A program made the translations under genes and the position numbers. DNA of 49,234 nucleotides, taken from an uncultured Myxococcales bacterium (GTDB lineage: Bacteria; UBA10199; 2-02-FULL-44-16; JAAZCA01). Under the pieces are notes generated by a model. It saw only the letters and a program-made list of their open reading frames with translations. It searched no databases and was not told where the DNA came from. The stretch is taken from contig CAYPII010000004.1 of the NCBI GenBank assembly GCA_964410765.1, positions 1 to 49,234 of the forward strand, in the 5' to 3' direction. This document shows positions 1,305 through 29,434 of this stretch, piece after piece. How positions within the stretch are numbered: the stretch's first letter is position 1; the number at the start of each line of letters is the position of its first letter.

Positions 1305-1333
1305 TTATCGGCTGCGCGGGGGGGAAGAGTTGC
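1305..1333 (-). promoter_or_regulatory. sigma28/FliA-like promoter
   Basis: Minus strand GCAACT-N15-GCCGATAA ending 33 nt before the ATG at 1271. Confidence 0.6.
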
Positions 1334-1391
1334 GTCGGAACCGAAAAGGCGTGTTCAAGAGGATACGATAAAACAGAATAATACCCATTGG

Positions 1392-1979
1392 TTACAGATC
1401 GCGACGCTCGTCGAAGGCGCGGGAGAGCGTCGAGGCATCGATGTACTCCAGGTCGCCGCCGACCGGGATGCCGCTGGCCAGGCGCGTGAGCCGCACGCCG
1501 GTGGGCTTGATGAGCTTCTGCAGGTAGAGGGCGGTCGCCTCGCCCTCGACGTTGGCGTTCGTTGCGACGATGACCTCGCAGACTCCGCCGGCCTCGATGC
1601 GGCGAAGCAGCTCGGCGATCTTGATGTCGTCGGGGCCAATGCCGTCGAGCGGCGAGATCGCGCCATGCAGGATGTGATAGCGTCCGCGGTAGGCGTGCGC
1701 GCGCTCCACCGCCATGACGTCGGAGGGATCCTCGACGACACAGATCGTCTCCCCCTCGCGGCGCATATCCGCGCAGAGCGCACAGGGATCGTTTTCGGTG
1801 AGGTTCATGCACTCGGAACAGAGGCGGACCTTCGCCTTCACGTCCAGGAGCGCCGCGGAGAGGGCCTGCGCGTACTCCGCCGGCTGGCGCAGGATGAAGA
1901 AGGCCAGGCGCGTGGCGGTGCGCTCCCCCACGCCGGGGAGCTTCGCGAGTTCATGAACGAGTCGATCGATCGGTGTCAT
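1392..1979 (-). CDS. recR: Recombination mediator RecR
   Basis: LPGVGERTATRLAF HhH motif, C4 zinc finger (CSEC...CALC), TOPRIM motifs VVEDPSD, NVEGEATA, GGDLEYID. Confidence 0.97.
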   Translation of the reverse strand: MTPIDRLVHELAKLPGVGERTATRLAFFILRQPAEYAQALSAALLDVKAKVRLCSECMNLTENDPCALCADMRREGETICVVEDPSDVMAVERAHAYRGRYHILHGAISPLDGIGPDDIKIAELLRRIEAGGVCEVIVATNANVEGEATALYLQKLIKPTGVRLTRLASGIPVGGDLEYIDASTLSRAFDERRDL

Positions 1980-2000
1980 TGCATCCGTGACGACGAAACC

Positions 2001-2075
2001 CGTGACACGTGACCCGTACAAACAGCTTCGTTTCAATCGTCACATCCGTTTGGGTCACGTGTGACGTGTCACGTG
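2001..2075. repeat. Heptamer-based inverted repeat (GTGACAC/GTCACGT)
   Basis: cgtgacacgtgaccc (2001-2015) vs gggtcacgtgtgacg (2052-2066), 14/15 complementary; tandem tcacgtg/tgacgtg/tcacgtg. Confidence 0.7.
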
Positions 2076-2399
2076 TTACGAGAAAAGATTTTTCAGTCCG
2101 CCGAGGCCGCCCATGCCGCCGAGCATGCCGGACATCAGCTCCTGTGCCGCCTTGCCCGCCTTCTGCGCGCTGTCGTTGACCGCGACACGGACGAGGTCGG
2201 CGACCATCTGCGCATCGCCGCCGGCGACGAGCTGCGGTTCGATCGTGAGCTTGACCACCTCATGCTTACCGTTGACGACGGCGGTCACCATGCCGCCCCC
2301 GGCCGTTCCCTCGAAGGTGAGATGCTCGAGCTCCTTCTGCTTCTTCTTGAGCTCCTTCTGCATCGAGCGCGCCTGCTTCATCATCTCCATCATATCCAT
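2076..2399 (-). CDS. ybaB: YbaB/EbfC nucleoid-associated protein
   Basis: MMKQARSMQKEL...GTAGGGMVTAVVNGKHE...DLVRVAVNDS; canonical position between dnaX and recR. Confidence 0.95.
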   Translation of the reverse strand: MDMMEMMKQARSMQKELKKKQKELEHLTFEGTAGGGMVTAVVNGKHEVVKLTIEPQLVAGGDAQMVADLVRVAVNDSAQKAGKAAQELMSGMLGGMGGLGGLKNLFS

Positions 2400-2416
2400 C
2401 GTCGTCCTCCTCTCCC

Positions 2417-4084
2417 TCATTTTTCCCCGTCGACCTTCACCTCGTGCAGCTCGGCGCCCAGGATGTCGGCCGCCTGCTGAACCATGTCGCTGCCGAGCGC
2501 CTCGCGCTCCATCTGCCGGCGTCGCTTCGGGCGGTCGGCCGCAGCATCGGCCCCGTCGGCACGCGCCACCTGCAGGCGCACCGGACGCTGGAAGAATTCG
2601 GCGAGCAGTTGCGCCACCTGTCGGCTGCGCTCCTCCTCCTCGATCATGTCCCCGTAGAGGCGGTTGTCGAAGGCGACCGTCGCGACATCCCCCTCCATCC
2701 CCTGGAAGTGCCCGGCGGCGACGATTGAGGAAAGCTGTGGACGCTTGGCGGCGAGCCAGCGCATGAACTCCTGCCAGCGCTTCTCGTTCACCGCGAAGGC
2801 GGGGTTGGCCACCGCCTCGAAGGTCGGCTTGGCCTCGGACTTCTGTGCGGGGGGCGTCGGCGCAGGAGACGCCTGCTTCGTCGGCGGCACGGCGGGCCGC
2901 GATGACGCCGCCAGCGTGCTCGCGGAGGGCTGCGAAACGCCCTCCGTCCCGAGCGCCCCCTCGAGCTTCGCGATCAGCTCGTCGACCGAGGCGAACGAGC
3001 CGACGCGGCAGAGGCGGATGAGCCCCACCTCGAGGAGCATCTTCGGAAAGGGGGAACGCGCCACGCGCTCGGCGACGCCGTACCAGCTGGTGAACATCTG
3101 GTGGAGCATCGGCGCCGGCACCTTCTTCGCCAACGCCTGGAGCTGCTCGACCTCGTGCGGGAGCAGGTCGCCCATCGCGCGCGCGTCGTTCGTCTCGGCG
3201 AGCACCAGGAGGTGACGCAACATCTCGAGCAGGTCCATCGCGAAGCGCGCGAGGTCGACGCCGCGGCGGAAGACCTCGTCGAGCGTGCCGAGCGCACGCT
3301 GCGCGTCCGACGCCAGCAGCGCCCCGACCAGGTCGAAGAGGAGCCCGCGGTCGAGGATGCCCAGCATCGTCTCGATCGTGGAGACGGTCACCGCCTCGCC
3401 ACCGCAGGCGATCGCCTGGTCGAAGAGCGACTCGGCGTCGCGCAACGAACCGGTCGCCTCGTTCGCGATGAGGCGCACGGCGTCGTCGTCGATCGACACC
3501 GTCTCCTCGCGCGCAATGCGCTTGAGCGTCGCCGCGATGAGCTGCGGCGGGATGCGGCGGAAGTCGTAGCGCTGACAGCGCGAGAGGATCGTCGCCGGGA
3601 TCTTATGCGCCTCGGTGGTGGCGAAGATGAAGACGACGTGCGGCGGCGGCTCCTCGAGCGTCTTGAGCAGCGCGTTGAACGCGCTGGTCGAGAGCATGTG
3701 CACCTCGTCGATGATGTAGATCGTGTAGCGCCCATGCGAGGGCATGTACTTCACGCGCTCGCGGATCTCGCGCACATCGTCGACGCTGGTGTTCGAGGCG
3801 CCGTCGATCTCCTGGACGTCGAGCGAGGCGCCGCCGGTGATCTGGTTGCAGGAAGGGCAGCGGTTGCACGGCTCGCTCCCCTCGCGCGCCTCGCAGTTGA
3901 GCGCCTTGGCCAGGATGCGCGCGACCGTCGTCTTGCCGATGCCGCGCGCCCCGGCGAAGAGATAGGCGTGGTGCAGCCGCCCCGAGGCGATCGCGTTCGC
4001 GAGCGTCTGGGTCACGTGTTCCTGGCCGATCACCTCGGCGAAGGCCTGCGGACGGTATTTGCGGGCGAGGACCTGATAGGTCAT
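2417..4084 (-). CDS. dnaX: DNA polymerase III subunit gamma/tau
   Basis: YQVLARKYRPQ, Walker A GARGIGKTT, IIDEVHML, SRC motif. Confidence 0.98.
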   Translation of the reverse strand: MTYQVLARKYRPQAFAEVIGQEHVTQTLANAIASGRLHHAYLFAGARGIGKTTVARILAKALNCEAREGSEPCNRCPSCNQITGGASLDVQEIDGASNTSVDDVREIRERVKYMPSHGRYTIYIIDEVHMLSTSAFNALLKTLEEPPPHVVFIFATTEAHKIPATILSRCQRYDFRRIPPQLIAATLKRIAREETVSIDDDAVRLIANEATGSLRDAESLFDQAIACGGEAVTVSTIETMLGILDRGLLFDLVGALLASDAQRALGTLDEVFRRGVDLARFAMDLLEMLRHLLVLAETNDARAMGDLLPHEVEQLQALAKKVPAPMLHQMFTSWYGVAERVARSPFPKMLLEVGLIRLCRVGSFASVDELIAKLEGALGTEGVSQPSASTLAASSRPAVPPTKQASPAPTPPAQKSEAKPTFEAVANPAFAVNEKRWQEFMRWLAAKRPQLSSIVAAGHFQGMEGDVATVAFDNRLYGDMIEEEERSRQVAQLLAEFFQRPVRLQVARADGADAAADRPKRRRQMEREALGSDMVQQAADILGAELHEVKVDGEK

Positions 4085-4362
4085 TTCTTATCCGACGCTG
4101 TAAAAAAACCCGTTTCCGATCAACGATCTGCAGGAAAAACCTGTACAACCGCTTGATATCAAAAAGTTTTCCTGTTGCGGACCGGGGGCCCCATCGGTTT
4201 ACGATACGGATACATGGGCTCCAGGGGGCGTCTGCAGAGCCCTTGCCGCGTATCAGATGGTCCCGTGAAGGGCAAGGGATTTGCGGCGAAGAAGGACACA
4301 ACTTTTTTCGCGAATACGCGAAAAAGAGGCGCTGGCAAGGACAACGGTCTCCGGGAGGACCC

Positions 4363-6912
4363 ATGGCGAAGATCTCGAGCGAATTCCTCAAAGAGCTGCA
4401 GGGGCCGATGTGCGGAAGCGCGGCCTTCACCGAGGACGACCCCTGGTGCGCAGCCAATCCGGAGCCGATCGAATTCGACGACTATCTCGACGGCACCGGG
4501 ACGAAGTACCTCGACATCCTCCCCACCTGGGAGGAGGACGCCGTCCGCTTCTGTCGGCAGTTCGGCCGGACGCCGGAGCTCTTCGACGAGGCGCGCCGCT
4601 GCACGCCGCTGGGGACGGATGTCGCAACCGAACTCAACCGCATCATCGCCGCCCTCCCCGGTCCATCGGGCACAACGCCGCCGGCAGCGCCGTTGGATGC
4701 AGCGGGAACGGCAACCGCCCCCGTCGAGATTCCAACGCCATCGCAGATCTACGTCCTCCTGCGCCGCACGCAGCTCCCCCCCCAGAGCTTTGACGATCTC
4801 TTCCGTGCCCGGGCGCAGTCCATCCATGACCAACTTCAGCGGATCGCGCAGCTGAAAAAAGCCGGCGATCCGGGCCTCGACGCGGCAGTCATGGACTTGC
4901 AGGAAAAACTCTCGCACGTCTGCGTCGTCTCCGATCCCGAGGCCCTGCGGAAGATCAACGATGCCTGCGGGCGCGTAATCGCAACGCACGACAACATGAA
5001 GACGTGGTACCAGAAGGGGATTGCAGCGATCACCGGTTTGGGGGGCAGCATCTGGCTCTCGATCAAGATGGGGTGGCTCCCCAAGATGTGGACGGCGGGG
5101 AAGAACCAGTGGAAGGCCTCGCGAACAATCGACCCGAAGACGAAGAAGCCGGTCGAGGGCAAGCTCATGGCGGCGCTCAAGACGATCGGCGCCTTCTTCC
5201 GAATGCGCGATCCCTATGCGCCGCAGCAACCGCAACAGCCGCAGTATCCCTATCCCGGGCCGTATGGACCGTACAATGGGCCCTACATTCCGCCGTATAC
5301 CCCACCGACAGGACAGGGGCAGCAACCGCCCCCGGGGACCTCTCCCGGAGCGGGTGGTGCGATGCCGCCGACGGCGGGGAGCAGCACCCCCTGGAGCCCA
5401 TCATACCCGACCGGCTCGCTTCAGGTCCCGATCGAAGGGATATCGCAGGCGGACACCGGCCTCATCTACACGGATGATATGCGCGTCTCGGAGTTGCGCC
5501 AGACGGCGACAGCGGTCATCACCGCATTCGACCACCTCGCACAGCATCCCCAGAGCAGCGCGGCGCTCTCCGAACGGGCCACGGTGCTCCGGGAGAGCCT
5601 GGAACGGACGGCCTACATCGACGACCGTTCCGCCCTCGTCGAATTGATGCCACTGATCATGGACGAAAAGACGCTCGGGAGCTTCGAGGCCTTCATCGAA
5701 TCCTACACGCGCTGGATCGCGACGGAGCGCTTCGTAACGGTGGCCGCGCTGGCTAAACGCGGGCTGGGAGAGCTCGCCGAAGACGAGACCGCAGAGCTGC
5801 AGACGATCCTTGAGGAAGCGAATGAAGCGATCGGTACGATCCGGACGTCGGCGACGGAGATCGGCTACCTGATCAATCATCTCGGCACCGCAATTGGACG
5901 CATGGAGGAGGTCTTCTCCGTCACCGCCGAACAACGCGATCGCCATATCAAACTGCTCAAGCGGTGGACGGCCGGGCTGCAGGACGCCGGCGGACTGATG
6001 CACGATGTGAACAACGTCACGCAGCGGCTGGAGGGGAATATCCAGCTCGCGCATCGTCGGCTCGATCGGACCGCACTCGTTCAGGGACACCTGGAGGACT
6101 TGAGTCAGTACGATCTTTCGAACCTGCGCTTCACGCTCGATTTCGTCACCAAGCTCCATCGCCGCTTCGCCGAGGAGCGCCAGGTCGAGATCCGCGTAGG
6201 GGATGCGGCCGAGCTGATGATCCCGGATGAGGGCTCCCTGCGCTTCGACCTCTTCCGCATCGTCAACGAACTGGTCACGAATGCGATCAAGTACGCCAAT
6301 CCTGCCGAAACGGCGGTCAGCTACGTCGAAGTTCGGACGGAGCGCGAGGGCGATCTCCTGCGTATCATCGTGGAGGACAACGGCGTCGGCATCAGCGACG
6401 TCGAAAAGGTCCTCGCCTCCGGCGTGCGCGAACAGCCGGAGCTCGCCGAGGGCGACGGGGAGGGGCTCACGATCGTCCAGCGCCTGACCCAGGAACACGG
6501 CGTGGCGTTCCGGATCGAATCGACGGTCGGGCAGGGGAGCCGGATCACCCTCGAGAAGAACATTTCCGGATGGACGCCATCGCCTGGCGGCGGTTCGACG
6601 AACGGTACCGCCGGGGCGGGAAGCGATGGCGAGATGCCGATCGGTGGCAGCGCATCAATCGAAACGCACGAGGCGCGCGACATCGCGCTGGGCCGATCGC
6701 GCTTTGCGGGATTCGCGGATGTGGAGCAGAGCTCCGACCCAATGAGCGATGCGGCGATCCCCTTCTCTCTCCTCCAGGATGACGCAACCAATCCGCTGGG
6801 GATCGAAACCCCGGGTGCGATCGATGCCGCGACCGGCGTCCATCTGGGCACCGGCGTCTTCGTCGGCGTACCGAGTCAGACCGCCCGCCCGACCGCTGCA
6901 AGCGCACACTGA
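4363..6912 (+). CDS. Atypical histidine kinase: orphan N-terminus, Pro/Gln-rich linker, HATPase_c domain and FAGF tail
   Basis: H-box LMHDVNN, N-box ELVTNAIKY, G1 VEDNGVGI, G2 GDGEGLTIV; start MAKISSE follows SD GGGAGG. Confidence 0.8.
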   Translation: MAKISSEFLKELQGPMCGSAAFTEDDPWCAANPEPIEFDDYLDGTGTKYLDILPTWEEDAVRFCRQFGRTPELFDEARRCTPLGTDVATELNRIIAALPGPSGTTPPAAPLDAAGTATAPVEIPTPSQIYVLLRRTQLPPQSFDDLFRARAQSIHDQLQRIAQLKKAGDPGLDAAVMDLQEKLSHVCVVSDPEALRKINDACGRVIATHDNMKTWYQKGIAAITGLGGSIWLSIKMGWLPKMWTAGKNQWKASRTIDPKTKKPVEGKLMAALKTIGAFFRMRDPYAPQQPQQPQYPYPGPYGPYNGPYIPPYTPPTGQGQQPPPGTSPGAGGAMPPTAGSSTPWSPSYPTGSLQVPIEGISQADTGLIYTDDMRVSELRQTATAVITAFDHLAQHPQSSAALSERATVLRESLERTAYIDDRSALVELMPLIMDEKTLGSFEAFIESYTRWIATERFVTVAALAKRGLGELAEDETAELQTILEEANEAIGTIRTSATEIGYLINHLGTAIGRMEEVFSVTAEQRDRHIKLLKRWTAGLQDAGGLMHDVNNVTQRLEGNIQLAHRRLDRTALVQGHLEDLSQYDLSNLRFTLDFVTKLHRRFAEERQVEIRVGDAAELMIPDEGSLRFDLFRIVNELVTNAIKYANPAETAVSYVEVRTEREGDLLRIIVEDNGVGISDVEKVLASGVREQPELAEGDGEGLTIVQRLTQEHGVAFRIESTVGQGSRITLEKNISGWTPSPGGGSTNGTAGAGSDGEMPIGGSASIETHEARDIALGRSRFAGFADVEQSSDPMSDAAIPFSLLQDDATNPLGIETPGAIDAATGVHLGTGVFVGVPSQTARPTAASAH

Positions 6913-6950
6913 CCATCCTCGCGCTGCGGTGCAACGAACGCGATCGACCA

Positions 6951-7334
6951 GGGGACGGGCCTGTGGGGGTCCGTCCCCGATCTGTTTTCAACGATGTTCC
7001 AGAGCGCTCTTCTCTGCATTCGCGACGGGCGATGGGGGTTCGCAAAAACATCGCGCGGTGTGACGGGGGCTCTCGGGCCTGTCCCGCTCGGAACGGCGGC
7101 TCGGCTCAGGTGCCGCCTCCGCCGCCTGACACTCTTCGCGCCGGGCATCTTTCGGCTTGGATCCGGCGCTCATCGAGTCTCCCCGCGCAACAGCCCCTGC
7201 GCCCCTGATGTCACACCGCGTTCGCGACGACAGACGAAGGGGCGATCCCCCAGCGCCCGTCGCGGATGATCCGGGAGAGCCCCGTCACACCGCTGCAAAC
7301 AAATCGGGGACGGGCCCCTGCGGGGTCCGTCCCC
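6951..7334. repeat. ~384-bp intergenic element with terminal REP-like hairpins and nested inverted repeats (MITE/BIME-like)
   Basis: GGGGACGG..CCGTCCCC hairpins at 6951-6978 and 7306-7334; 6971-6987 is complementary to 7297-7313 (1 mismatch); internal IR 7055-7077 / 7271-7293. Confidence 0.65.
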
Positions 7335-7339
7335 TCTTT

Positions 7340-7753: not shown

Positions 7754-7759
7754 GAAGGA

Positions 7760-7918
7760 TCAGTCCCCCATGACGATCGTCAACTCGCCGCTCTTCTTGT
7801 CGACGAGGACGACGCTATAATTCCCATCCGGCTGGCGCCCGGTGCGCACGGCGTACTTCTGGGTAAAGAAGATGAAGAGGGCGACGAGCAGGATGAGGAT
7901 CAGGATGAACTTCTTCAT
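7760..7918 (-). CDS. Small membrane-anchored or secreted protein (52 aa)
   Basis: MKKFILILILLVALFIFF hydrophobic N-terminus; strong SD AAGGGAGG. Confidence 0.7.
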   Translation of the reverse strand: MKKFILILILLVALFIFFTQKYAVRTGRQPDGNYSVVLVDKKSGELTIVMGD

Positions 7919-8027: not shown

Positions 8028-8119
8028 TGGCGGAGGGGGTGGGATTCGAACCCACGGACCTCCTTTCGAAGGTCAACGGTTTTCGAGACCGCCCCGTTCA
8101 ACCGCTCCGGCACCCCTCC
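8028..8119 (-). tRNA. tRNA-Ser(CGA)
   Basis: GGAGGGGTG..., anticodon loop CT-CGA-AA, long variable arm, GGTTCGAATCC, encoded CCA. Confidence 0.96.
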
Positions 8120-8152: not shown

Positions 8153-8240
<88 letters not shown>

Positions 8241-8433: not shown

Positions 8434-8460
8434 GAAACTTTCTCCCTCGCGCGCCGATAA
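8434..8460 (+). promoter_or_regulatory. sigma28/FliA-like promoter
   Basis: GAAACTTT-N11-GCCGATAA (consensus TAAAGTTT-N11-GCCGATAA), 10 nt before the ATG at 8471. Confidence 0.7.
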
Positions 8461-8470: not shown

Positions 8471-10606
8471 ATGGATATCACCGACATCCGGATCACCGAT
8501 CTGGCACAGGAGCCCGTGCATGCATGGGTCAGCCGCATCGTCGAGGCAGCGGCGGCAATCGGCCGCGCCGACGATGCAAGGGCGATCGACCGCCTGCGCG
8601 ATTTTCTGGCGACGCCGCGCACGATCATGGATGCCGAGGAGGCAAACGCGCTGGAGGAGGACATCGTCCAGCTCTACCGACGCACCGTCCGAGGCGGCGT
8701 GGATGTCCTCCGCCTGGAACACCAACGCTTCGCAAAACAGTTCGACCGCTTTCAGGAGAGCGGCACCGTTGTCATAGAGGACAGTTGGGGCGAGCTCTCG
8801 CTGCGCAATCCGCCGAATGTGACGCTTACGGATGAAGAACTCTTCAGCGCCTACCCGGATATCGGCACCACGGCCCAGCAACTCACGTGGCGCGCCGGCG
8901 GACATGTCGCCACTTTCTCGAGCCCCTTTGTGCAGACCCACCTCGACGGCCTGCGTTCGCTTGCCGAGGAGATCGATCGCATCGGTCTGGAGCACCCGAT
9001 CGAGGCGCGCCGCACCCTCCACCGCATCAACAAACGCCTGCTCCTCATCGACCGCCTCCTGCACACGCCCCCCGATGTGATTCCCCAGGAGGCCATCGAA
9101 GCCATCGAGGCAATCGGCCTGGCCCTCTCCGACGAGACGGTCTTCGTCGGCGATGAGGCACCGATCAAGATGCTCTATCAGGTCATCAAGCAGTCCATTA
9201 CGGAGAAGCGCTTCGATGCCGACCTCATGCGTGCGATCATCGAGACCCGCCTGCGAATCCTGGAGGGGCATCCGGACGGACCGCTCGTCGACCCAATGCA
9301 TGTCATCGATCCCGTAAACGACAACCCCCGTTTGAATCAACAGCACATCGAACACCTCGTCACGGAACTGCGCACCGTGGTCGAACGGTATCGGGCCGAG
9401 GGTCGCCACATGCCGCTCGAAGACCTCGCCACCACCGCGATCGAACCCTCGCCCCTCTCCCACACGCGCGAGAAATTCATCCGGAGGGGAGTGGAACAGG
9501 TCGAGGATCCGGCCTTCTGGCTCGGCGTCGATGTCGCCGAAGGATACCTGCGCTCGGAGACTCCCCGAAACGCCCTCCTCGCTTTGGAGCTCTTCGAATT
9601 CAGCGCCTCCTATTCGAAGGCGATCCTGCTGATGGCGGCCTTTCGGATGAAGGTGGGAAGGGAGAGCACCCTCTTCACGCAGACGATCGTCCCGACAATC
9701 CTGGAGTCCTTCATCAACGACTTCCGCATCGGCTGGCTGATCCAGCAATTCGATGCCCGGCGCCAGGAGAAGGGAGAAGCGAATCTTCCGTCGGAGATCG
9801 TGGAACGTCTCCCGGAACGACTGGAACAACTGCTGTCGGAGGAACGTCCGATCCATCTCGAGTTCGGCGGCGGCATGACGCCGGACGGCATCCGCATCGC
9901 CCATCGCCGCCCCGAGGGCATCGTGCTCTCCATCGATCCCTTTGTGCAGCACGTCGTCTCCCCGCCAAACGCCTTCTCCCCCCCTCCCCTGAATTTCGAA
10001 CGCGTCCACGGCTACGCCGAGGAGCTCGTCCCCTTCGGCTCCTTCGCCGAAAGCGCGGTTGCGGTCGCGCCGCATCCGGATAATGCGCCGTTCATGCTCC
10101 TCGCAGCCCTGCTCACCGTGCAGCCGGGGGGAACGGTCGACTTCTATCTGTTCCGGAAGGAAACTGACCTGCAGGAGCTCGCACGCTCCTTCGGCTATGC
10201 GACCGAGACGATGCGCATCGCGGCCGGCGACGAGGACTTTCCGATGAGCACCGCCTTCCGGCAGGAGGCGGAGGTCGAACGACTGCGCATCCGCATCCCA
10301 TACCGCACACCCCCGGTCGAGGGGCCTCCCCCCTATCGGAGGCGTACGCCCCAAACGGAAGACGATTCCTCGGGAGGGGCCTCGGCCTCCGACGCCACCG
10401 TGACGCGCAGCGCTTCGCACTTCGCCGGTTTTACCGAGGGTGAAACCGCACAGACGATCGACACCTCGACCTGGCTCATGCTCGTCGGGGAAGAGGAACC
10501 GACGGCACTCGAAACCACGGTGACAGACGGGACGCTCCCCCTTCCTTCGGCAAGGGGAGCGGCGCCGGCGGCGAGCACCGCAGCGCGCCCGATCACGCCG
10601 AAGTAA
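8471..10606 (+). CDS. Orphan protein with a degenerate class I SAM-methyltransferase-like domain and FAGF tail (711 aa)
   Basis: IHLEFGGGMTPDGIRIAHRRPEGIVLSIDP resembles motifs I/II of TrmB-like MTases; LLTVQPGGTVDF resembles motif VI. Start chosen from paralogy with 10617 and to avoid the tRNAs. Confidence 0.75.
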   Translation: MDITDIRITDLAQEPVHAWVSRIVEAAAAIGRADDARAIDRLRDFLATPRTIMDAEEANALEEDIVQLYRRTVRGGVDVLRLEHQRFAKQFDRFQESGTVVIEDSWGELSLRNPPNVTLTDEELFSAYPDIGTTAQQLTWRAGGHVATFSSPFVQTHLDGLRSLAEEIDRIGLEHPIEARRTLHRINKRLLLIDRLLHTPPDVIPQEAIEAIEAIGLALSDETVFVGDEAPIKMLYQVIKQSITEKRFDADLMRAIIETRLRILEGHPDGPLVDPMHVIDPVNDNPRLNQQHIEHLVTELRTVVERYRAEGRHMPLEDLATTAIEPSPLSHTREKFIRRGVEQVEDPAFWLGVDVAEGYLRSETPRNALLALELFEFSASYSKAILLMAAFRMKVGRESTLFTQTIVPTILESFINDFRIGWLIQQFDARRQEKGEANLPSEIVERLPERLEQLLSEERPIHLEFGGGMTPDGIRIAHRRPEGIVLSIDPFVQHVVSPPNAFSPPPLNFERVHGYAEELVPFGSFAESAVAVAPHPDNAPFMLLAALLTVQPGGTVDFYLFRKETDLQELARSFGYATETMRIAAGDEDFPMSTAFRQEAEVERLRIRIPYRTPPVEGPPPYRRRTPQTEDDSSGGASASDATVTRSASHFAGFTEGETAQTIDTSTWLMLVGEEEPTALETTVTDGTLPLPSARGAAPAASTAARPITPK

Positions 10607-10616: not shown

Positions 10617-13592
10617 ATGGATATCCGCGACCTCCAGCTTGCCGATTTTGCCGATCCCGCCGTGCGGCTGTGGGGAAGACGCGTCCTCATGCAGTCGGAA
10701 CTCGCCAACCTCGCCATCCCCGACGAAAACGCTTCGCTCTCCCGAGCGCTGGATTCGCCCTGGTACTATGGACCCACGGAGGCAGCGGCGATCCGACAGC
10801 AATTCGTCGATCTCTACGAGCGGGTCGTGGGACGATCCTCCGGACACGCGCTCGACATCGGCCGGCAGTCCTTTCCGGGAATAACACGCCTCTTCGCTCC
10901 CCATGTCCACGCTGCGGGGGGACGCTCGCTCGCCTCGCTCACCGACGACGCCCTCTTCGCGCGCTACGGCGATGTGGCCATCGCTGCGGAACACCTCTTT
11001 CAGCGTGCCGGCCACCTCGCCGGAGAATGCCCGCAGGAGACGATCCGAAGAGAGCTCGACGCAATCGCCCGGCTGCTGACGGCGATTGCCGAACGGGGCC
11101 GAGACCGCCCAGCGCTTGCGCGACAGTTGCTCGCGCGCGCCGAGGGGCGCATCATGCAACTCGAGACGCATCTGAACATGTCCGCAGCGTCCCGCGAGGC
11201 ATCGCTGCCGCTCCCACCAATCGACGGACTCGAAGGGGAGGGCGTGGCGGACTGGCAACGGCGCTTCGGAAGTGCAATTCCCCCGCCGACATCGTTCGAT
11301 CCGGCTGCGGATCGCGCCCTCGCCGCCGCCGCCGATCGTTTCCGCGAAGGGCGCAATCAGGTGTATGAGGAACTGGTTGCGTCGTCGCTCCAGGCGAGGA
11401 TGACCGAACAAGAAGTTGCGGAGGCAATCGCACAGACCGAAGACCCCTTCTTTTCCAATGCCGTCGACTCCATCTCGACACAGCTTGAACACGCAGCCCC
11501 GAACGCAGCGCTCGGTTTCCTCCGCACATTTTCACTCCGCTCCTCCTACGCCGGAACAATTCTTCTGACCGCCGTCGCCGAGCGGCGCTTCGGCCGCAAC
11601 AGCAATCTCTTTCAGGAACAGCTTAAGCCCCCGTTGCTCCGGGGCCTCGCCGGCGACCGCCTGCCTCCGGCGGAATGGGAGGAAGCACCGCAGGATGCAT
11701 CGCTGTTGCCGGAGAAGCTCTCGCTTCTCCTCGAGCAGGCGAAGCGTACCGGTCAACGCATCCATCTCGAATTCGGCGGCGCAACCCATCCGCAAGGGGC
11801 GATGATCGCGACCCAATATCATGATGACATGGTGATCTCGATCGACCCCCAGGCAAACAAAATCCTCTGGCGGAACTTGGTCGTCGTCCACGCACCGAAC
11901 AACTTCTTCTTCCTGCGGGGCTTCGCGGAAGAGGCCGCCCTCTTCGCCCACGATGACCCGTTCGCGGAGAGCGCCACGATCGTCCATCCGCAGGCCTACA
12001 ACCTGCCGCGGCTTCTGTTCTCGGCGCTGCTCTCCGTCCGTCCCGGGGGAACGATCGACCTCTATCATCGTTCCCTCGAAACGCCGGAGTATATGTGGCG
12101 GGAGGATGTCGCCTGGTTGGAGGAGCTCGGCGCGACGATCGACGTCAACACCTTCTCCTGGGACCGGTATGAGGGCCCGCACGCGGGCCAATTCGTAGAG
12201 GGGGAGGAGATCGTTCACCTCCGCATCACCGTCCCGGCGCTCGATACAAATGCAGCGGGAACGCCGGATGGCACCAACGGTTCGGAGGACCAGGCGACCG
12301 GGCCGCTGCGAACGATCTCCGGACCATCGGCGGCGGGGCATTCCGCACAGGAGGCCGCCCGCAAACGCATCCCGGCGCTTACCGCGCAACTCCAGAGCGA
12401 ATTCGACTTCCGTCGCGCAACGCGGCAACAGCTTCCCATGGAGGAACGTGTTTTCCGACGCGACATTCTTCGCGATAATGACCGGGATTGGATCCCCGAA
12501 CAGCGACGACTCGAGCGGCCCGGCGCCGACCGCCTCTTCGACGATGCGGCCGAACTCGTGGGCCTGCACCTCCATACGGAGACACCGGAGCACATCACTC
12601 CCCTGCTCGAAGGTTTTGCACTCCCGAAGAACTATGAACGGGCGATCCTGCTCTCGGGGGCCTACGCCTTTCGCGTCGGCGCGGAGAGCGATCTCTATCG
12701 AACACTCTTCTATCCGGCAATCGTCCGGCCGATCATCTCCTATCTCCCCCGTCCGGAACCGCTGGCCTTCGAAGATGCTCTCGTCCCGCCCGTGGAGGCG
12801 ATTTTTCCCACACTGCTCGCGACGGCGGAACGGGAAGGACGGGAGATCCATCTGGAATTCGGCGGCTTCATGACGCCCGACGGCATTCGCATCGCCAATG
12901 AGCAGCCGGAGCTGCTCGTCGCCTCGATCGATCCGACGGCGAGCACCATCGTGAAGGAGTTGATTCCCGCCACCGCACAATACGAAAACTTCATCCACCT
13001 GCGCGGCGATGCGGAGCGGATCGCCCCCTGGGCTGCCCTGAATCCGTTCGCCTCCAGCGCGTCGATCGTCGCCCCCTCCCCGGCAACCCTGGATGGCTTG
13101 ATGCTCTCCGCCCTGCTCGCCGTACGGCCGGGGGGAACGATCACGATCTTTTCCCTCGAACGCGAGAGCATGGATATCCCCTTTCTGCATCGTTTGAATC
13201 TTCCGGTCGAACAGCGTTCCTTCCGATGGTCATTGCAGGAGGGACCCTACAGCACTTACCTGCGGGAGGGGGAGATCGTCACCCGGACGGACATCCGGGT
13301 CCGTGCGTTCGGAGAAACGGGAATGGGCTCGCCGCCGCTGGAAGGGACGGACGATGCAAAATCGAGCGCGATCCCAAACACGCCGGCCGGAAATGCGGCG
13401 AGCGCGGCACACTTCGCGGGCTTCGCGGATGATCCGACCACAGCATCGCCCTCGATCGCTCTCCAGATCCTGCTCCAGGATGGCGGGAACGAGAGCGAAC
13501 CCCTCCTCGATGTCGCAAACGCCCCGGCGGCGCCCTTCCCCGCCGCAGCCGCCGCCCGTATTCGCCCGACGCATCTGCCCAAGGCGAAGTAA
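10617..13592 (+). CDS. Paralogous orphan protein with two tandem MTase-like modules and FAGF tail (991 aa)
   Basis: IHLEFGG...SIDP and VRPGGTI each occur twice; N-terminus MDIRDLQLADFA resembles MDITDIRITDLA. Confidence 0.8.
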   Translation: MDIRDLQLADFADPAVRLWGRRVLMQSELANLAIPDENASLSRALDSPWYYGPTEAAAIRQQFVDLYERVVGRSSGHALDIGRQSFPGITRLFAPHVHAAGGRSLASLTDDALFARYGDVAIAAEHLFQRAGHLAGECPQETIRRELDAIARLLTAIAERGRDRPALARQLLARAEGRIMQLETHLNMSAASREASLPLPPIDGLEGEGVADWQRRFGSAIPPPTSFDPAADRALAAAADRFREGRNQVYEELVASSLQARMTEQEVAEAIAQTEDPFFSNAVDSISTQLEHAAPNAALGFLRTFSLRSSYAGTILLTAVAERRFGRNSNLFQEQLKPPLLRGLAGDRLPPAEWEEAPQDASLLPEKLSLLLEQAKRTGQRIHLEFGGATHPQGAMIATQYHDDMVISIDPQANKILWRNLVVVHAPNNFFFLRGFAEEAALFAHDDPFAESATIVHPQAYNLPRLLFSALLSVRPGGTIDLYHRSLETPEYMWREDVAWLEELGATIDVNTFSWDRYEGPHAGQFVEGEEIVHLRITVPALDTNAAGTPDGTNGSEDQATGPLRTISGPSAAGHSAQEAARKRIPALTAQLQSEFDFRRATRQQLPMEERVFRRDILRDNDRDWIPEQRRLERPGADRLFDDAAELVGLHLHTETPEHITPLLEGFALPKNYERAILLSGAYAFRVGAESDLYRTLFYPAIVRPIISYLPRPEPLAFEDALVPPVEAIFPTLLATAEREGREIHLEFGGFMTPDGIRIANEQPELLVASIDPTASTIVKELIPATAQYENFIHLRGDAERIAPWAALNPFASSASIVAPSPATLDGLMLSALLAVRPGGTITIFSLERESMDIPFLHRLNLPVEQRSFRWSLQEGPYSTYLREGEIVTRTDIRVRAFGETGMGSPPLEGTDDAKSSAIPNTPAGNAASAAHFAGFADDPTTASPSIALQILLQDGGNESEPLLDVANAPAAPFPAAAAARIRPTHLPKAK

Positions 13593-13597
13593 TCGGC

Positions 13598-22908: not shown

Positions 22909-23025
22909 CGTTCATCCTCCCCCTCCCCCAGCTGGCTCTCTATCCCGTTTTCCGCGCCGCCTGCAAGCCCTTTTGCCCCGGAGGCCGCCGTTGACAAACG
23001 CGCGGCGTCCCTCCATGAATCACCC

Positions 23026-24069: not shown

Positions 24070-24079
24070 AGGGGATGTC

Positions 24080-25336: not shown

Positions 25337-25379
25337 CCCATCGTTGCATTTTTTCCGGCCGCGCCGGATACTCGCGCCC

Positions 25380-26234
25380 ATGACGCCCAAGTCCAAGGCA
25401 GCGCTCTGGTCGGTAGCGGTGGCGGGCGGCCTCGCCGTCATCAAGCTCGCCGTCGCGCTCTTCACGATGTCGCTGGCGGTGCTCGCCAGCGCCCTCGACT
25501 CGCTGATGGACACCCTCTCGACGGCGATCGCCTTCATCGCCGTGCGCACGGCCGACAAGCCCGCCGACGGAAAGCACCCCTTCGGCCACGGCAAGGCGGA
25601 GGGGATCGCCGGCCTCTTCCAGGCCACCTTCATCGCACTGAGCGCCGGATACCTGATCTACACGTCCTTCGTGCGGATCATGCACGGATACGAACTCCAG
25701 AGCGAGGTGGTGGGGCTCGCCGCAATCGTCGTCTCGCTCGTCGCGAGCATCTTTCTCGCGCGGCACCTCAAGCGCGTCAGCCGCGAGACCGAGTCGACGG
25801 CGCTCGCCGCCGGGGCACTCAACTTCGGCGCCGACATCTGGACGAACCTGGGGGTGCTCGTCGCCCTCGCCCTGGAACGGTGGGCGGCGGTGAAGAACGC
25901 CGACCCGATCATCTCGATCCTCATCTCGATCTACATCGTCATCTCGGCGGTGCGCATCGGCATCGATGCGATCAACCAGCTGATGGACAGGACGCTCCCC
26001 GACGAGATGCTGATGATCATCGACGCGTGCATCCGCACGCGCGAGCCCTTCGTGAAGGGCTATCACAATCTGCGCACGCGGCGCGTGGGCGATGAGCGCT
26101 ACATCGAATTTCACGTGGAGATCGACCGGACGCTCTCGTTCGAGAAGGCGCACGACGTGACCGAGGGGATCATCCACGAGATCCGCGAGACCATCCCGCG
26201 CGCGAAGATTACCGTTCACACCGACCCGGCGTAA
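25380..26234 (+). CDS. Cation diffusion facilitator transporter (FieF-like)
   Basis: SLAVLASALDSLMD, HPFGHGKAE, ITVHTDP; upstream TTGCAT-N17-GATACT-N7-ATG. Confidence 0.92.
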   Translation: MTPKSKAALWSVAVAGGLAVIKLAVALFTMSLAVLASALDSLMDTLSTAIAFIAVRTADKPADGKHPFGHGKAEGIAGLFQATFIALSAGYLIYTSFVRIMHGYELQSEVVGLAAIVVSLVASIFLARHLKRVSRETESTALAAGALNFGADIWTNLGVLVALALERWAAVKNADPIISILISIYIVISAVRIGIDAINQLMDRTLPDEMLMIIDACIRTREPFVKGYHNLRTRRVGDERYIEFHVEIDRTLSFEKAHDVTEGIIHEIRETIPRAKITVHTDPA

Positions 26235-26271
26235 AAGACCGTTCGTGCCGTACTGAGCACGAACGGTCTTT
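26234..26271. terminator. Bidirectional terminator / REP-like hairpin between convergent genes
   Basis: Perfect 15-bp stem aaagaccgttcgtgc / gcacgaacggtcttt. Confidence 0.75.
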
Positions 26272-26294
26272 GTCTCCCAAACAAATGTCTCTTC

Positions 26295-26984
26295 TCATTC
26301 GCCGTCGGTTCCCTCCGGCCGGACGGGATTGAACTCGTGCCTCTGCGGAATCCGTTGCACCGCTGGCGGCATGTCCGTGTTATCCCGGTGGAGATGCACA
26401 TCGGTCGGGATGTTGCGAATATCGTACTCCTCGCAGACCGAGACGACGATGCGATCGGCGACCGCCGCGGGACCGGCGATCTCCGCGATCATCGTCGGCT
26501 CCTCCTCCTTGAGCTTCGGCCGCAGCGCGTAGCTCGTCACAACACCCTCATCCTCATGACGGACCGCGATCGCCGGGCTCTCGGGAATCGGTTCGAAGCC
26601 GGCGCCCGCCCATTCGAGCAGCTCGTCGAGCGAGATCATCGGCTGCACCGGCGCCTCGAAGACGATCGTGGCCGTCCCCTCGTCGGCGATCAGCTGCGCT
26701 CCCTCGCCATCCGCCACCACGTCGGCGGGAAGCGATGTGCGGAAGCAGAAACAGTGCTTGGCAAAGCGGCAGTCCTCGCCCACCGGACGCACCACGTCGC
26801 CCTCCTCCTCCGTCGGGTTGCCGACGCCGGTGCCGGCGACGACGATGTCGGTCTCGTCCGGGGCGCCTTCGTCACCCTGTGCGCCACCGCCCATCCCCGC
26901 GCCCAATCCGCCGCCGGGCGTGCAGCCCGCCAGGGCGATGAGGAATGCAGCGACGATCAAGAGGATTGAGAGTCTATTTCTCAT
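26295..26984 (-). CDS. Putative lipoprotein
   Basis: Lipobox LAGC after a hydrophobic leader; GTGVGNP motif; overlaps the stop of the upstream gene. Confidence 0.8.
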   Translation of the reverse strand: MRNRLSILLIVAAFLIALAGCTPGGGLGAGMGGGAQGDEGAPDETDIVVAGTGVGNPTEEEGDVVRPVGEDCRFAKHCFCFRTSLPADVVADGEGAQLIADEGTATIVFEAPVQPMISLDELLEWAGAGFEPIPESPAIAVRHEDEGVVTSYALRPKLKEEEPTMIAEIAGPAAVADRIVVSVCEEYDIRNIPTDVHLHRDNTDMPPAVQRIPQRHEFNPVRPEGTDGE

Positions 26985-27798
26985 GGCGCACCTCGCTTAA
27001 GGGAAAGAACTGAATGTTCAGCTGATAGACGCTCTCGTGCTGCGTCGATTCCGAGAGGTCGGCGTGCAGCTTGCGGTGAAACTCCTGGATGCGGCGCTTG
27101 GCCTTCTCGAAATCGTCGCGGGAGATGGCGACGGTGAGCGCCGAGAGCTCCCGATCGCGCGAGTTGACGAGATCGAGCGACTCCGCCGAGCGCTGCATCA
27201 TCTCGCGATGGAATTTCCACGCCGCCATAGCGGCGATCTCCGCCGGCGTCCCGATGTTGCGGTCGACCTGCTCGTAGCGCCCCTTCGCGATCCTGCGGAT
27301 GAGGCCGAGGCGCAACAGCAGCTCCATCGCCTCGTGCGCCGCCTTCATCGTGATGTTGGGCGTGAGCGTGCGCGCGATCCACTCCGGGTCGTCGGAGAAG
27401 TCGGGCAACAGCACCAGCTCGCGCACGGCGGCGTAGTACCACTTCGAAAAGTATTCGTACTGATCGTGTTCCAGGTGTTTGAGGGCGATGTACTTCTTCG
27501 AGGCGTTGAGCTTCTCGAAGTAGTACTGCTTCTGCTCTGTCTTCTTCGCCTGGTTCATGAGGACGAGATTTTCGAAGAACTCGCGCTCCGCCCCCTTGAA
27601 CTTGAAGTAGTCGACGAGCTTCGCCATCGAAGCGGGGCTCACGTTGCGGCGCCCCTCGATGATGAGCTGCATGTAGTTGGGCGACTTGAAGCCGGCGCGC
27701 TTCGAGACGGCGCGCGCCGAGATGCCGCGGTCCTTGCGCTCCTCGATGTAGTCGGCGAGGAATTGACGGTAGTCGAGGTATTCGAAGATCGTCTTCAC
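26974..27798 (-). CDS. TIGR02147 family (DUF4423) HTH protein
   Basis: IFEYLDYRQFL, AGFKSPNY, WYYAAVREL, FHREMM, VYQLNIQFFPLS; GTG start after GGAGG. Confidence 0.9.
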   Translation of the reverse strand: MKTIFEYLDYRQFLADYIEERKDRGISARAVSKRAGFKSPNYMQLIIEGRRNVSPASMAKLVDYFKFKGAEREFFENLVLMNQAKKTEQKQYYFEKLNASKKYIALKHLEHDQYEYFSKWYYAAVRELVLLPDFSDDPEWIARTLTPNITMKAAHEAMELLLRLGLIRRIAKGRYEQVDRNIGTPAEIAAMAAWKFHREMMQRSAESLDLVNSRDRELSALTVAISRDDFEKAKRRIQEFHRKLHADLSESTQHESVYQLNIQFFPLSEVRHEK

Positions 27799-27861
27799 GC
27801 CTGGGCCTCCCCGCAAATCCTCGCCCCGCAAGGATTCGCGCCGTTACCACCCTCTATCCTG

Positions 27862-27877
27862 AGCAAGAAATATGCCA
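27862..27877 (-). promoter_or_regulatory. sigma54 -24/-12 promoter
   Basis: Minus strand TGGCATA-TTTC-TTGCT upstream of the TIGR02147 gene. Confidence 0.7.
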
Positions 27878-27938
27878 CCCCCGCCCCATTCTCGCCAAAA
27901 GCGATTTGAAATCAAACGAGAATTCCCCTTCCTCCTCA

Positions 27939-27967
27939 TTATCGGCCGGTTGCAAGGTAGGAGTTTC
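27939..27967 (-). promoter_or_regulatory. sigma28/FliA-like promoter
   Basis: Minus strand GAAACT-N15-GCCGATAA. Confidence 0.55.
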
Positions 27968-28070
27968 CCGGCAGCGCAAGGGAATGCAGACAGTTGTCTT
28001 CAGGGGGCACCGAACGCCCTCTCAAAGGGAGAGGATAGCGTCAATTCTTTGACAAGGGTCCGGGACGAAA

Positions 28071-28652
28071 TCAGCTCATGCCCGGCTTGCACTCGGCGAG
28101 GAAGCGCTCGATCTGGTGGTCGAGGGAGGCCAGCGATTTGAGATAACAGCCGGCGCTGATCTGGGAGAGCTGAAAGGAAAAGCGCTCGCAGTCGAGCGTC
28201 TCCTGGGCGGGCGGGACGCATTCGGTGACATCGTCGTCGGGCTCGAAGCTCTCGTTGGGGCTCTCCACGCCGTGTTTCCAGGCGATCAGGTCGACGGCGA
28301 GCTTGAGCCAGGCGACCTCCCAGGTGCGGATCGTGCCGACCTCCGTCTCCATCGTTGCATCGGGCGGATACTTGCGCACCATGTCGAGGCGCAGGAAGTC
28401 GAAGATCGGACGCGCGTTCTTTCCGTAGAGCGCCTGCATCTCCTCGAAGGTCAGCTTTCCATCCTTGTTCGGATCGATGTAGCGCATGCTGATCCCGACC
28501 GCGTCGACGCCGGAGACCTTCCCCGTGGCATCCTCCTTCGGCACGATCTCGGAGTAGTCGATCGCGGGAACGCGCACGCGCGAGCCCATGAAGTCCTGCT
28601 CGATCTGGACGTGACGAAATCCGGCGTGCGTCTTCTGGGGACCATCAGCCAT
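28071..28652 (-). CDS. Hypothetical protein with EF-hand-like loop
   Basis: DPNKDGKLTFEE matches an EF-hand loop; SD GAGGAG. Confidence 0.7.
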   Translation of the reverse strand: MADGPQKTHAGFRHVQIEQDFMGSRVRVPAIDYSEIVPKEDATGKVSGVDAVGISMRYIDPNKDGKLTFEEMQALYGKNARPIFDFLRLDMVRKYPPDATMETEVGTIRTWEVAWLKLAVDLIAWKHGVESPNESFEPDDDVTECVPPAQETLDCERFSFQLSQISAGCYLKSLASLDHQIERFLAECKPGMS

Positions 28653-28662
28653 AAACGGCTCC

Positions 28663-29388
28663 TCACTTCGGGAAGAGAATGCGGCACCCGCCCGACTCCT
28701 GGTAGGTGCGGTAGTGAACGAGGTCGATGCGATAGCGGGCGAGCTCCTCCGCCGAATAGGGGAGCTTGACCATGTGCGCGACGGCGCGAAGCATCAGCTT
28801 CTGCGTATTGCAGAGGACGATGCGCTCCTCCGCCGTGCGCGGGGTGAGGCCGATCTGCTCCTCATTCGTGCGCATCTGGCGGCGCGCCTCCTTGAGCAGC
28901 GCCATCCGTTCGGGGAGCGGAAGCGTTCCTGCCGTCTCTTTATCGGAACGCGTGAGGACACGCGTCGCGAGCTGAAAGAGCGAGTAGGCGAGGTAGTCGC
29001 GCGTGACGATGTGATTCGGTTCCAGCTCCAGGGCGGCGGTCAGCAGCGCGATGCTCCTGCGCGCCTCGGCCTCGTCCAGCACGACGCCCTCGTCCTGCTT
29101 CGCCGGGGGACCGATGACGAGACCGGCGTAGCGGACGGAATGCGCCAACTCCTTGCGCCGCTGCACGCAGTCCTGTCGGGATATCCCCTTGGGGCAGAGC
29201 TCGCGGAAGCGCTTGATCAGCGCCGTCTGCGCCTTCGCCGGGTCCCCCTTCATCCGTTGCGCCAGGTGGTCGGCGTCGTCCAGCGTCAGCTCGCCGTCGC
29301 CGTCGAAGTCGAGCGCCTCGGCCGTCGATGCGGCGGCAATTTTCTGCACGGGGGTCTGGCCCCGATCCGGACCGTTGATATCGCCCAT
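28663..29388 (-). CDS. Hypothetical protein with EF-hand-like loop and a TPR-like helix pair
   Basis: DFDGDGELTLDD; IALLTAALELEPNHIVTRDYLAYSL; strong SD AAGGAGGAGG before MGDING. Confidence 0.75.
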   Translation of the reverse strand: MGDINGPDRGQTPVQKIAAASTAEALDFDGDGELTLDDADHLAQRMKGDPAKAQTALIKRFRELCPKGISRQDCVQRRKELAHSVRYAGLVIGPPAKQDEGVVLDEAEARRSIALLTAALELEPNHIVTRDYLAYSLFQLATRVLTRSDKETAGTLPLPERMALLKEARRQMRTNEEQIGLTPRTAEERIVLCNTQKLMLRAVAHMVKLPYSAEELARYRIDLVHYRTYQESGGCRILFPK

Positions 29389-29407
29389 CGTCGCTCCTCC
29401 TCCTTCA

Positions 29408-29434
29408 TTATCGGCAGCGGGACCCGTGAGTTTC
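29408..29434 (-). promoter_or_regulatory. sigma28/FliA-like promoter
   Basis: Minus strand GAAACTCA-N11-GCCGATAA, 19 nt before ATG 29388. Confidence 0.7.

Follow-up and report, generated by a model that had tools for sequence, protein, structure and literature searches.

The window, i.e., the whole stretch of 49,234 nucleotides analyzed here, is contig C4 of the genome of an uncultured Myxococcales bacterium (2.35 Mb in 229 contigs, 65% G+C, 96.55% complete), and the element under study is a short bipartite sequence resembling the promoters read by the sigma factor sigma-28 (FliA). The octamer GCCGATAA is present in four copies in the window (about 0.99 expected; four or more copies were obtained in 1 of 100 shuffles), at positions 1305-1312(-), 8453-8460(+), 27939-27946(-), and 29408-29415(-). 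These copies are all intergenic and point at the next open reading frame (ORF), and a G[AC]AACT block stands upstream of each of them, with spacers of 15, 13, 15, and 13 nt in sites 1 to 4, respectively. The sites and their upstream blocks are located and oriented as described in an earlier note on this DNA, which ascribed them to a FliA-like sigma factor controlling a regulon of lineage-specific proteins.

The Promoter-Like Sites of the Window and the Genes Behind Them

Site 1 (1305..1332, minus strand) reads GCAACT-N15-GCCGATAA and, with its CAAC at -20, belongs to the long-spacer class of sites defined below. Its octamer lies 33 nt from ATG 1271, the start of an ORF (669..1271, minus strand) encoding a 200-aa protein assigned to no Pfam family. 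Site 2 (8435..8460, plus strand), which reads GAAACT-N13-GCCGATAA and belongs to the short-spacer class, is located between two tRNA genes identified with Rfam (8031-8119 and 8155-8240, minus strand), which lie directly upstream of it, and an ORF encoding a 711-aa protein without a Pfam family (8471..10606, plus strand). Since ATG 8471 is just 10 nt past the octamer, either the mRNA is nearly leaderless or the real start is further downstream. The next ORF (10617..13592, plus strand; 991 aa), which begins 10 nt downstream of 8471-10606 and shows 33-34% identity to it, probably shares its transcript.

Site 3 (27939..27966, minus strand), a long-spacer site reading GAAACT-N15-GCCGATAA, precedes a gene encoding a regulator with helix-turn-helix (HTH) and DUF4423 domains (26974..27798, minus strand), one of eight paralogues in the genome. 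GTG 27798, at 140 nt from the octamer, was taken to be the start codon because the N-terminus then agrees with those of the paralogues. The following ORF (26295..26984, minus strand; 229 aa, no Pfam family) overlaps the 3' end of the regulator gene and is probably part of the same transcript. The leader that separates site 3 from the regulator gene (27799-27938, minus strand; about 130-140 nt) contains an inverted repeat (aatcct...aggatt); in an Rfam scan of the window, the two tRNAs were the only matches, and none was obtained in this leader. At site 4 (29408..29433, minus strand), a short-spacer site reading GAAACT-N13-GCCGATAA, the octamer is followed by GGAGGAGG and then, at a distance of 19 nt from the octamer, by ATG 29388, where an ORF encoding a 241-aa orphan without a Pfam family begins (28663..29388, minus strand). 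The ORF located 10 nt downstream of this orphan gene (28071..28652, minus strand; 193 aa, weak EF-hand match) is probably co-transcribed with it.

The N-termini of all four target proteins, including that of the 200-aa protein behind site 1, are not signal-peptide-like. No homologues of the products of 669-1271 and 28663-29388 were found in the 30 relatives searched, 12 of which belong to the same family, while the product of 8471-10606 gave partial matches at 28-33% identity in 6 of the 12 same-family genomes. The motif occurs at up to one mismatch on the homologue's strand in the loci of five of these six genomes, and near the inferred start in about three of the six by our own arithmetic. 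In the ESM Atlas, the best scores obtained with 8471-10606 and 28663-29388 were 0.88, below the meaningful level. Since the window targets lack or barely have homologues, yet the motif recurs upstream, the promoter is kept across relatives while the genes behind it turn over fast.

Two weaker variants of the motif had also been proposed in the window. The one at 4298-4324 has three octamer mismatches and a poor -35 block, and the one at 34112-34119 reads TTCGATAA (two mismatches) and has no CAAC at -18 to -20; both fail a scan allowing two combined mismatches and look like chance occurrences. As the earlier note had it, no flagellar genes are present: a Pfam search detected no flagellar family among the 38 ORFs of the window. 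Taken alone, the four window sites are weak evidence, and it is the whole-genome counts that make the case for the motif.

Genome-Wide Distribution and Consensus of the Motif

Genes and starts were called with a crude caller of our own, based on a strict model trained on GC3 and codon usage. Among the 81 exact octamers of the genome, 41 are intergenic according to these calls, and [C/A]AAC stands 18-20 nt upstream of the octamer in 33 of these 41 copies vs. 7 of the 40 in-gene copies. The bipartite element [C/A]AAC-N14-16-GCCGATAA occurs 40, 87, and 300 times with 0, 1, and 2 octamer mismatches, respectively, whereas three second-order Markov simulations yielded 0-2, 14-23, and 205-230 copies. 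When intergenic, gene-facing sites within 150 nt are considered, the counts are 30, 40, and 33, vs. 0, 0-3, and 7-37 with eight scrambled octamers. The motif is therefore strongly enriched upstream of starts genome-wide in comparison with both the simulations and the scrambled octamers, which is what the earlier note had suggested checking. The 70 upstream-oriented sites with at most one mismatch are nearly all real, and a minority of the two-mismatch class is probably real too; some of the sites called in-gene reflect miscalled starts, as in the case of window site 2. We estimate that there are 80-110 real sites in the genome.

In the 71 intergenic sites considered, the start codon follows the octamer at a median distance of 33 nt. 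The 40 exact copies give the consensus c-g-C-A-A-C-t-t ... G-C-C-G-A-T-A-A-t, with a T after the octamer in 26 of the 40; the positions of CAAC are -18 (23 copies), -19 (5 copies), and -20 (12 copies). In flagellated bacteria, the FliA/FlgM pair controls the late (class 3) flagellar genes, and the FliA consensus is TAAAGTTT-N11-GCCGATAA. In its -10 block, the motif coincides exactly with this sigma-28 element, as the earlier note had proposed; its -35 block departs from the consensus invoked there, being CAAC/AAAC rather than TAAA, and 5 of the 8 positions of TAAAGTTT agree with the -35 consensus at equal distance.

The spacer is bimodal, with mostly 14 or 16 nt after CAAC: in the 70 upstream sites, CAAC begins 18 nt before the octamer in 43 cases, 19 nt before it in 9, and 20 nt before it in 18. 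The 20-nt class, which reads GCAACTTyG, includes all six promoters found at this threshold in front of DUF4423 genes and both promoters of the cluster that carries the candidate sigma gene described below (8 of 18 vs. 0 of 52, p = 5e-6). In the window, sites 1 and 3 have the long spacer, and sites 2 and 4 the short one. One possibility is that the two spacer classes correspond to two temporal tiers of expression.

Five copies with at most one mismatch are followed by no plausible ORF within 150 nt downstream: C1:10633-10660(+), C198:120-146(-), which lies at a contig end, C8:7516-7542(+), C129:3998-4024(-), and C56:8842-8867(+). These copies could drive small RNAs, by analogy with Bdellovibrio, where three small RNAs preceded by the FliA motif are reported (PMC3627812).

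The Candidate Sigma Factor

Searches with FliA_WhiG and Sigma70_r2 models identified a single FliA/WhiG-like sigma gene in the genome (C21:1523-2377, minus strand), so that a sigma-28-family gene, on the presence of which the earlier note had made its claim depend, does exist. The 284-aa product matches regions 2, 3, and 4 over their full length, and its best NCBIfam family is FliA_WhiG (TIGR02479; profile positions 1-219 of 224), followed by the WhiG and FliA models; FliA_WhiG scores ahead of the SigB/F/G, extracytoplasmic function (ECF), and RpoD models. In the Protein Data Bank (PDB), the best sequence matches are 6pfv/6pfj, the deposited name of which is simply "RNA polymerase sigma factor," and the next ones are FliA (9wsf, 9wsm, 6pmi, and 1rp3) and WhiG (7lq4). 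The other sigma factors of the genome are RpoH (C78), RpoD (at the edge of C114), and three ECF sigmas (C9, C6, and C191); no copy of the motif was found upstream of any of these five genes.

An exact copy of the motif (C21:3436-3463) is present in front of the operon including the sigma gene, ahead of a gene encoding a 141-aa protein. In the relatives, GCAACTT...CCGATAATA occurs ahead of the 141-aa gene in every locus reaching that far (L116, L118, L119, L123, and L136-L143), where the long spacer is kept in length and its sequence differs. This conserved operon site is the strongest single argument for a functional site and for feedback of the sigma on its own gene, and it suggests that the sigma probably boosts its own expression. 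The sigma gene itself is preceded by a 192-nt gap, which leaves room for a second promoter.

Most relatives carry an ORF of 110-130 aa between the 141-aa gene and the sigma gene (129 aa in the genome studied here), which can hardly be aligned (mean column identity 31%). It was the position of this ORF and its rapid change that gave rise to the idea of a FlgM-like anti-sigma factor. When the small ORFs surrounding the sigma gene and the small targets were compared with Pfam at a relaxed threshold (E up to 5), nothing meaningful came up.

A Type III Secretion Cluster Without a Detectable Flagellum

The cluster on C21 comprises, in order, a 176-aa ORF, a small tetratricopeptide repeat (TPR) protein, a YscJ/SctJ-like lipoprotein, the 141-aa ORF, the 129-aa ORF, the sigma gene, a 163-aa ORF, and a FliG_C-like ORF. 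The TPR protein is SycD/LcrH-like at 37.5 bits, below the cut-off of 104.8; III_secr_YscJ is the best family of the lipoprotein at 134.6, below the cut-off of 161.95; and the FliG_C match is weak (29 bits). Judging by eye, the C-terminus of the 163-aa protein may resemble those of inner-rod proteins. A copy of the motif with one mismatch (C21:5700-5727) stands before the 176-aa ORF.

Elsewhere in the genome, the FHIPEP protein passes the model for hrcV/SctV (TIGR01399; 801.2 > 692) and fails that for FlhA (TIGR01398; 695.5 < 772), which indicates that the export gate is of the SctV and not of the FlhA type. FHA/YscD-like proteins adjoin SctV, three unassigned secretins are encoded in the genome, and there are homologues of FliP, FliMN_C, and Bac_export_2, families which are shared with flagella. 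The Flagellin_N, Flagellin_C, Flg_bb_rod, and MCPsignal families had no match in this genome, at its 96.55% completeness, while the control genomes matched as expected. Of the flagellar or type III secretion system (T3SS) export genes that the earlier note had suggested looking for, those for type III export are thus present, and flagellar structural genes were not found.

Conservation in the Relatives and Across the Phylum

CAAC-N14-16-GCCGATAA was found in all 31 relatives (2-71 copies vs. 0-3 with a reversed control) and in all 81 genomes sampled from the phylum, which are all listed as one class (1-71 copies vs. 0-3). A sigma orthologue with 59-76% identity was identified in 30 of the 31 relatives, and FHIPEP likewise in 30 of 31. 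The gene order SctJ, 141-aa gene, sigma, 163-aa gene, and FliG_C-like gene is kept in the loci of the relatives belonging to the same family and order, and the sigma gene and SctV are located 8-18 kb apart on one contig in six class-level relatives. Flagellin_N was detected in only 1 of the 31 relatives and in 11 of the 81 genomes of the phylum sample, which means that most of the members searched are without flagellin and that some are flagellated. Going by this sigma, the nearest public records are metagenome-assembled genomes, which mostly bear the titles "Deltaproteobacteria bacterium," "bacterium," or "Pseudomonadota bacterium," one being an "uncultured Victivallales bacterium."

The one flagellated relative in the same family (G002) carries a full-looking flagellar island (C1:21552-54578) with a second FHIPEP gene, FlgM, and two flagellins, a 3.2-kb stretch of which has a G+C content of 39.6%. 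Three origins are conceivable for the island, namely true retention of the flagellum, transfer, and contamination, and nothing clear was found when a contrasting promoter of the TAAA type was sought in it. It also includes a second FliA-like gene, and since the product of this gene, which stands beside flagellar genes, is only 29% identical to the C21 sigma, the comparison hints that the C21 sigma may be a paralogue distinct from the flagellar sigma.

The Genes Behind the Motif

The targets examined comprise 106 candidates, namely 70 called genes and 36 "alt" ORFs, i.e., ORFs lying directly after sites called in-gene. No Pfam family (E <= 1e-5) was assigned to 67 of these 106 targets, vs. 7 of the 70 genes of a baseline, for which 148 non-target genes were drawn from 14 random contigs and the first 70, located on 6 contigs, were scanned (Fisher p = 4e-13); the corresponding figures are 44 of 70 for the called genes and 20 of 30 for the called genes with an exact site. 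This enrichment bears out the proposal that the regulon is made up of lineage-specific proteins. The second part of that proposal, that these orphans lack signal peptides, is true of the four window targets and is not general. According to a crude hydrophobicity rule, 16 of the 70 targets have a signal-peptide-like N-terminus, vs. 454 of the 1742 other genes (26%; p = 0.68); among the targets with an exact site, the figure is 3 of 30 (p = 0.056).

The targets that can be named include six HTH + DUF4423 regulators, cell-wall enzymes (Peptidase_M15, AmiA-like, and SLT enzymes), a subtilase, OmpA and TSP3-repeat proteins, a GGDEF protein, a PilZ protein, and EF-hand, TPR, and HEAT proteins; no flagellar families occur among them. 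The motif stands before six of the eight DUF4423 paralogues at up to one mismatch and before seven at up to two. Pairs of cysteines recur among the 40 N-terminal residues of orphans such as C54:1960, C16:16372, C1:43264, and C14:23765, and several targets contain DxDxDG-like motifs of the calcium-binding kind; these two features may mark paralogous families among the orphans.

Other Features of the Window and the Genome

Three tandem paralogous ORFs without a Pfam family (34739-37075, 37457-39784, and 40166-42124, plus strand; 778, 775, and 652 aa) occupy a region of the window with direct repeats every 2709 nt, which are up to 95-100% identical. The G+C content there is 0.58-0.60, below that of the rest of the window, and no motif was found in front of these ORFs at up to two combined mismatches. 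An N6/N4 DNA methylase gene (48305-49165, plus strand), the GC3 of which is 0.42 vs. about 0.85 elsewhere, is probably acquired DNA; a copy of the motif with one mismatch lies inside it (48849-48875). Elsewhere in the genome, Intein_splicing domains are present in GyrA (G000:C31:2182-6003) and in an SMC/RecF-type ATPase (G000:C84:2-1861), together with a LAGLIDADG domain in the latter case.

Proposed Explanation and Alternatives

The explanation we propose is that cgCAACtt-N(11-13)-GCCGATAAt would provide the -35 and -10 elements of a promoter recognized by an alternative form of the RNA polymerase holoenzyme, the sigma subunit of which would be the single FliA/WhiG-family protein encoded on C21. 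From its position in an injectisome-type T3SS cluster, this sigma would reinforce its own expression via the motif of its operon. Transcription would start a few bases past GCCGATAA, giving short leaders, and the holoenzyme would drive some 80-110 transcription units, mostly coding for lineage-specific proteins with no assigned function, while the DUF4423 HTH regulators would constitute a second regulatory tier. Judging from the sequence comparisons, it is likely that lineage-specific genes form a regulon under the control of a FliA-like sigma, and we have equally good confidence that the C21 sigma would be the factor reading the motif.

A coupling between the regulon and the T3SS is suggested by the location of the sigma gene. 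That the regulon might be expressed late or at a specific stage, in a programme tied to the T3SS in the manner of the class 3 flagellar genes or the attack-phase genes of Bdellovibrio, is a proposal for and against which we see the arguments as evenly balanced. It is possible, albeit rather doubtful, that part of the targets without signal peptides are T3SS substrates. These elements can be combined into a broader picture, which we put forward only tentatively: throughout an uncultured phylum, a paralogue of the flagellar sigma might act as the main switch of a programme linked to the injectisome, with a promoter bar-coding a rapidly changing set of proteins that are secreted or stage-specific, namely effectors serving predation or a life in association with hosts. 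The sigma might then be released in step with secretion via a fast-evolving, FlgM-like small protein encoded just upstream, and the long-spacer sites (regulators and T3SS genes) and short-spacer sites (orphans) might form two temporal tiers.

Several findings weigh against this explanation or against some of its parts. The TAAA(GTTT) block that a sigma-28 promoter would carry 15 nt before the octamer is replaced by CAAC/AAAC, which resembles the "AAC" -35 element of ECF sigmas; since the -35 block is unlike TAAA, the assignment of the motif to the sigma rests on the identity of the -10 block, on co-conservation, and on the site in front of the sigma operon. The score of the C21 sigma (135.4 bits) is below the curated FliA_WhiG cut-off of 189.6. 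As regards the anti-sigma factor (FlgM, or RsiG in the case of WhiG), Pfam FlgM had no match in this genome and exceeded its cut-off in only 1 of 21 genomes, that of G002; aligned with the FlgM of G002 using hhalign, the 110-130-aa ORF reached a probability of 0.2 and showed no similarity that would support it as a candidate. No copy of the motif with up to one mismatch precedes the core export-gate genes on C19, C42, and C72, which means that the T3SS would be only partly under the control of the motif, and signal-peptide-like N-termini are about equally common among the targets and the other genes, so that many targets would use the Sec pathway. The target set has its own weaknesses: the gene calls and starts come from a crude caller, the baseline draws on few contigs, and several "alt" targets correspond to internal positions of LytB, PGK, DnaA, DnaG, GyrA, and a CoA-transferase, those lying inside housekeeping genes being probably false. 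Lastly, the matches of window:26900-30000 in public read sets were DNA sets labelled as microbial mat metagenomes, and no RNA run was among them.

The resemblance of the -35 block to ECF elements makes it necessary to consider whether the motif might be read by an ECF-type sigma. AAC-N16-CGAT has the geometry of an ECF promoter, GCAAC/GAAAC followed by TT at 16 nt from CG recalls the SigW/SigX/SigM promoters of Bacillus, and the genome does encode three ECF sigmas. On the other hand, GCCGATAA(T) corresponds over its whole length to the -10 element of sigma-28, and although ECF sigmas are usually autoregulated, no motif is present upstream of the three ECF genes or of their upstream neighbours. 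Two of the three ECFs, those on C9 and C6, were compared across the 31 relatives; each was found in 9 of them, mostly at 26-35% identity, whereas the motif is present in 31 of 31, and neither was found in the 8 genomes of families f2 and f4, which carry 10-54 copies of the motif each. Recognition by an ECF sigma seems very improbable. We give slightly less credit still to the idea that the motif is not a promoter at all, but the operator of a DNA-binding regulator such as the DUF4423 HTH family. Its presence upstream of seven of the eight DUF4423 paralogues at up to two mismatches can be read as autoregulation, and the existence of two spacer classes also fits this idea; however, the motif is asymmetric, strictly gene-oriented, and located at promoter distance from the start codons, and its two conserved blocks enclose a non-conserved spacer of 14-16 nt, the -10 block being the element of a known sigma.

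The alternative with the greatest weight keeps the sigma-28-like promoters and dissociates the regulon from the T3SS: the genes would form a general stationary-phase, dispersal, or developmental programme, the products of which stay in the cell or are exported via Sec, and the sigma gene would lie where it does for historical reasons. We find this quite plausible, if a little short of evenly balanced. The 16 of 70 signal-peptide-like targets, several of which are cell-wall enzymes or outer-membrane proteins, and the lack of the motif before the core gate genes of the T3SS are in its favour, as is the fact that WhiG, which governs development and not secretion, is among the best PDB matches of the sigma. 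Linkage speaks for a connection with the T3SS instead: the T3SS cluster carries two copies of the motif, before the putative chaperone-SctJ operon and before the sigma operon, its synteny is kept in the family and the order, and the sigma gene stays within 8-18 kb of SctV in the class-level relatives mentioned above.

Comparison With Known Systems and Significance

The closest precedent for the proposed sigma-28-type regulon is the global FliA regulon of the attack phase in Bdellovibrio bacteriovorus. In that organism, TTAAG-N16-CCGATA is present at 92 of 140 mapped attack-phase promoters, CCGATA is equated with the FliA site of Escherichia coli, and FliA is proposed to be a global regulator (Karunker et al., 2013; PMC3627812); a DUF4423 protein, Bd3700, is also described in Bdellovibrio (PMC12546842). 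The two systems have in common many tens of promoters located mostly before non-flagellar genes (about 90 of the sigma-28 type in Bdellovibrio, 70 sites here), including those of proteases, surface proteins, and many uncharacterised genes, and the occurrence of DUF4423 proteins. Bdellovibrio is flagellated, however, and its FliA also drives flagellar and chemotaxis genes, whereas flagellin, rod/hook, and MCP genes were not detected in searches of the present genome, the sigma gene stands in an injectisome-type cluster, the -35 block is CAAC, and the motif is phylum-wide.

Canonical FliA shares with the present case the identical -10 octamer, the distance between the blocks in the short-spacer class, and a sigma family tied to a type III export machine; the differences lie in the absence of flagellar targets and of a detectable FlgM, in the -35 block, and in a several-fold larger regulon consisting mostly of orphans. 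In Pseudomonas syringae and Erwinia (HrpL and the hrp box) and in Bordetella (BtrS/BtrA), an alternative sigma factor encoded in the T3SS cluster recognizes a motif marking late T3SS genes and effectors, and motifs of the hrp type can be used to list candidate effectors. HrpL and BtrS are of the ECF type, whereas the sigma described here belongs to the FliA/WhiG family, and secretion of its targets is only proposed. Chlamydia likewise combines a sigma-28-family factor with an injectisome and no flagella, the factor serving a late developmental stage, but in a study using chromatin immunoprecipitation sequencing (ChIP-seq), only two promoters, hctB and tsp, were bound by sigma-28 in Chlamydia trachomatis (Rizvi et al., 2025; PMC12282069), vs. 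the 70-110 or so sites predicted here.

Early-branching non-flagellar T3SSs of Myxococcales were described by Abby and Rocha (2012; PMC3459982); both cases involve a non-flagellar T3SS in organisms formerly classed with the Deltaproteobacteria. The main text of that study makes no mention of a sigma factor. The T3SS cluster analyzed here keeps two flagellum-like traits, the FliG_C-like gene and the FliA-family sigma. No description of this system was found in a literature search, the coverage of which excluded subscription journals and supplementary files.

If the assignment of the motif to the sigma holds, a single motif would catalogue the co-switched lineage-specific genes of a whole uncultured phylum. 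This catalogue would comprise about 100 genes per genome, most of which have no known family and at least some of which are limited to a single genus, and, for organisms so far seen in metagenomes only, it would indicate what their biology involves, be it predation, symbiosis, or a developmental stage. It would also be the second independent case, after Bdellovibrio, of a sigma-28 factor escaping its flagellar role, and the escape would have occurred in cells that no longer have a flagellum and in which an injectisome was retained or acquired. The finding would thus bear on how the flagellar regulatory hierarchy was reused as non-flagellar type III systems arose.

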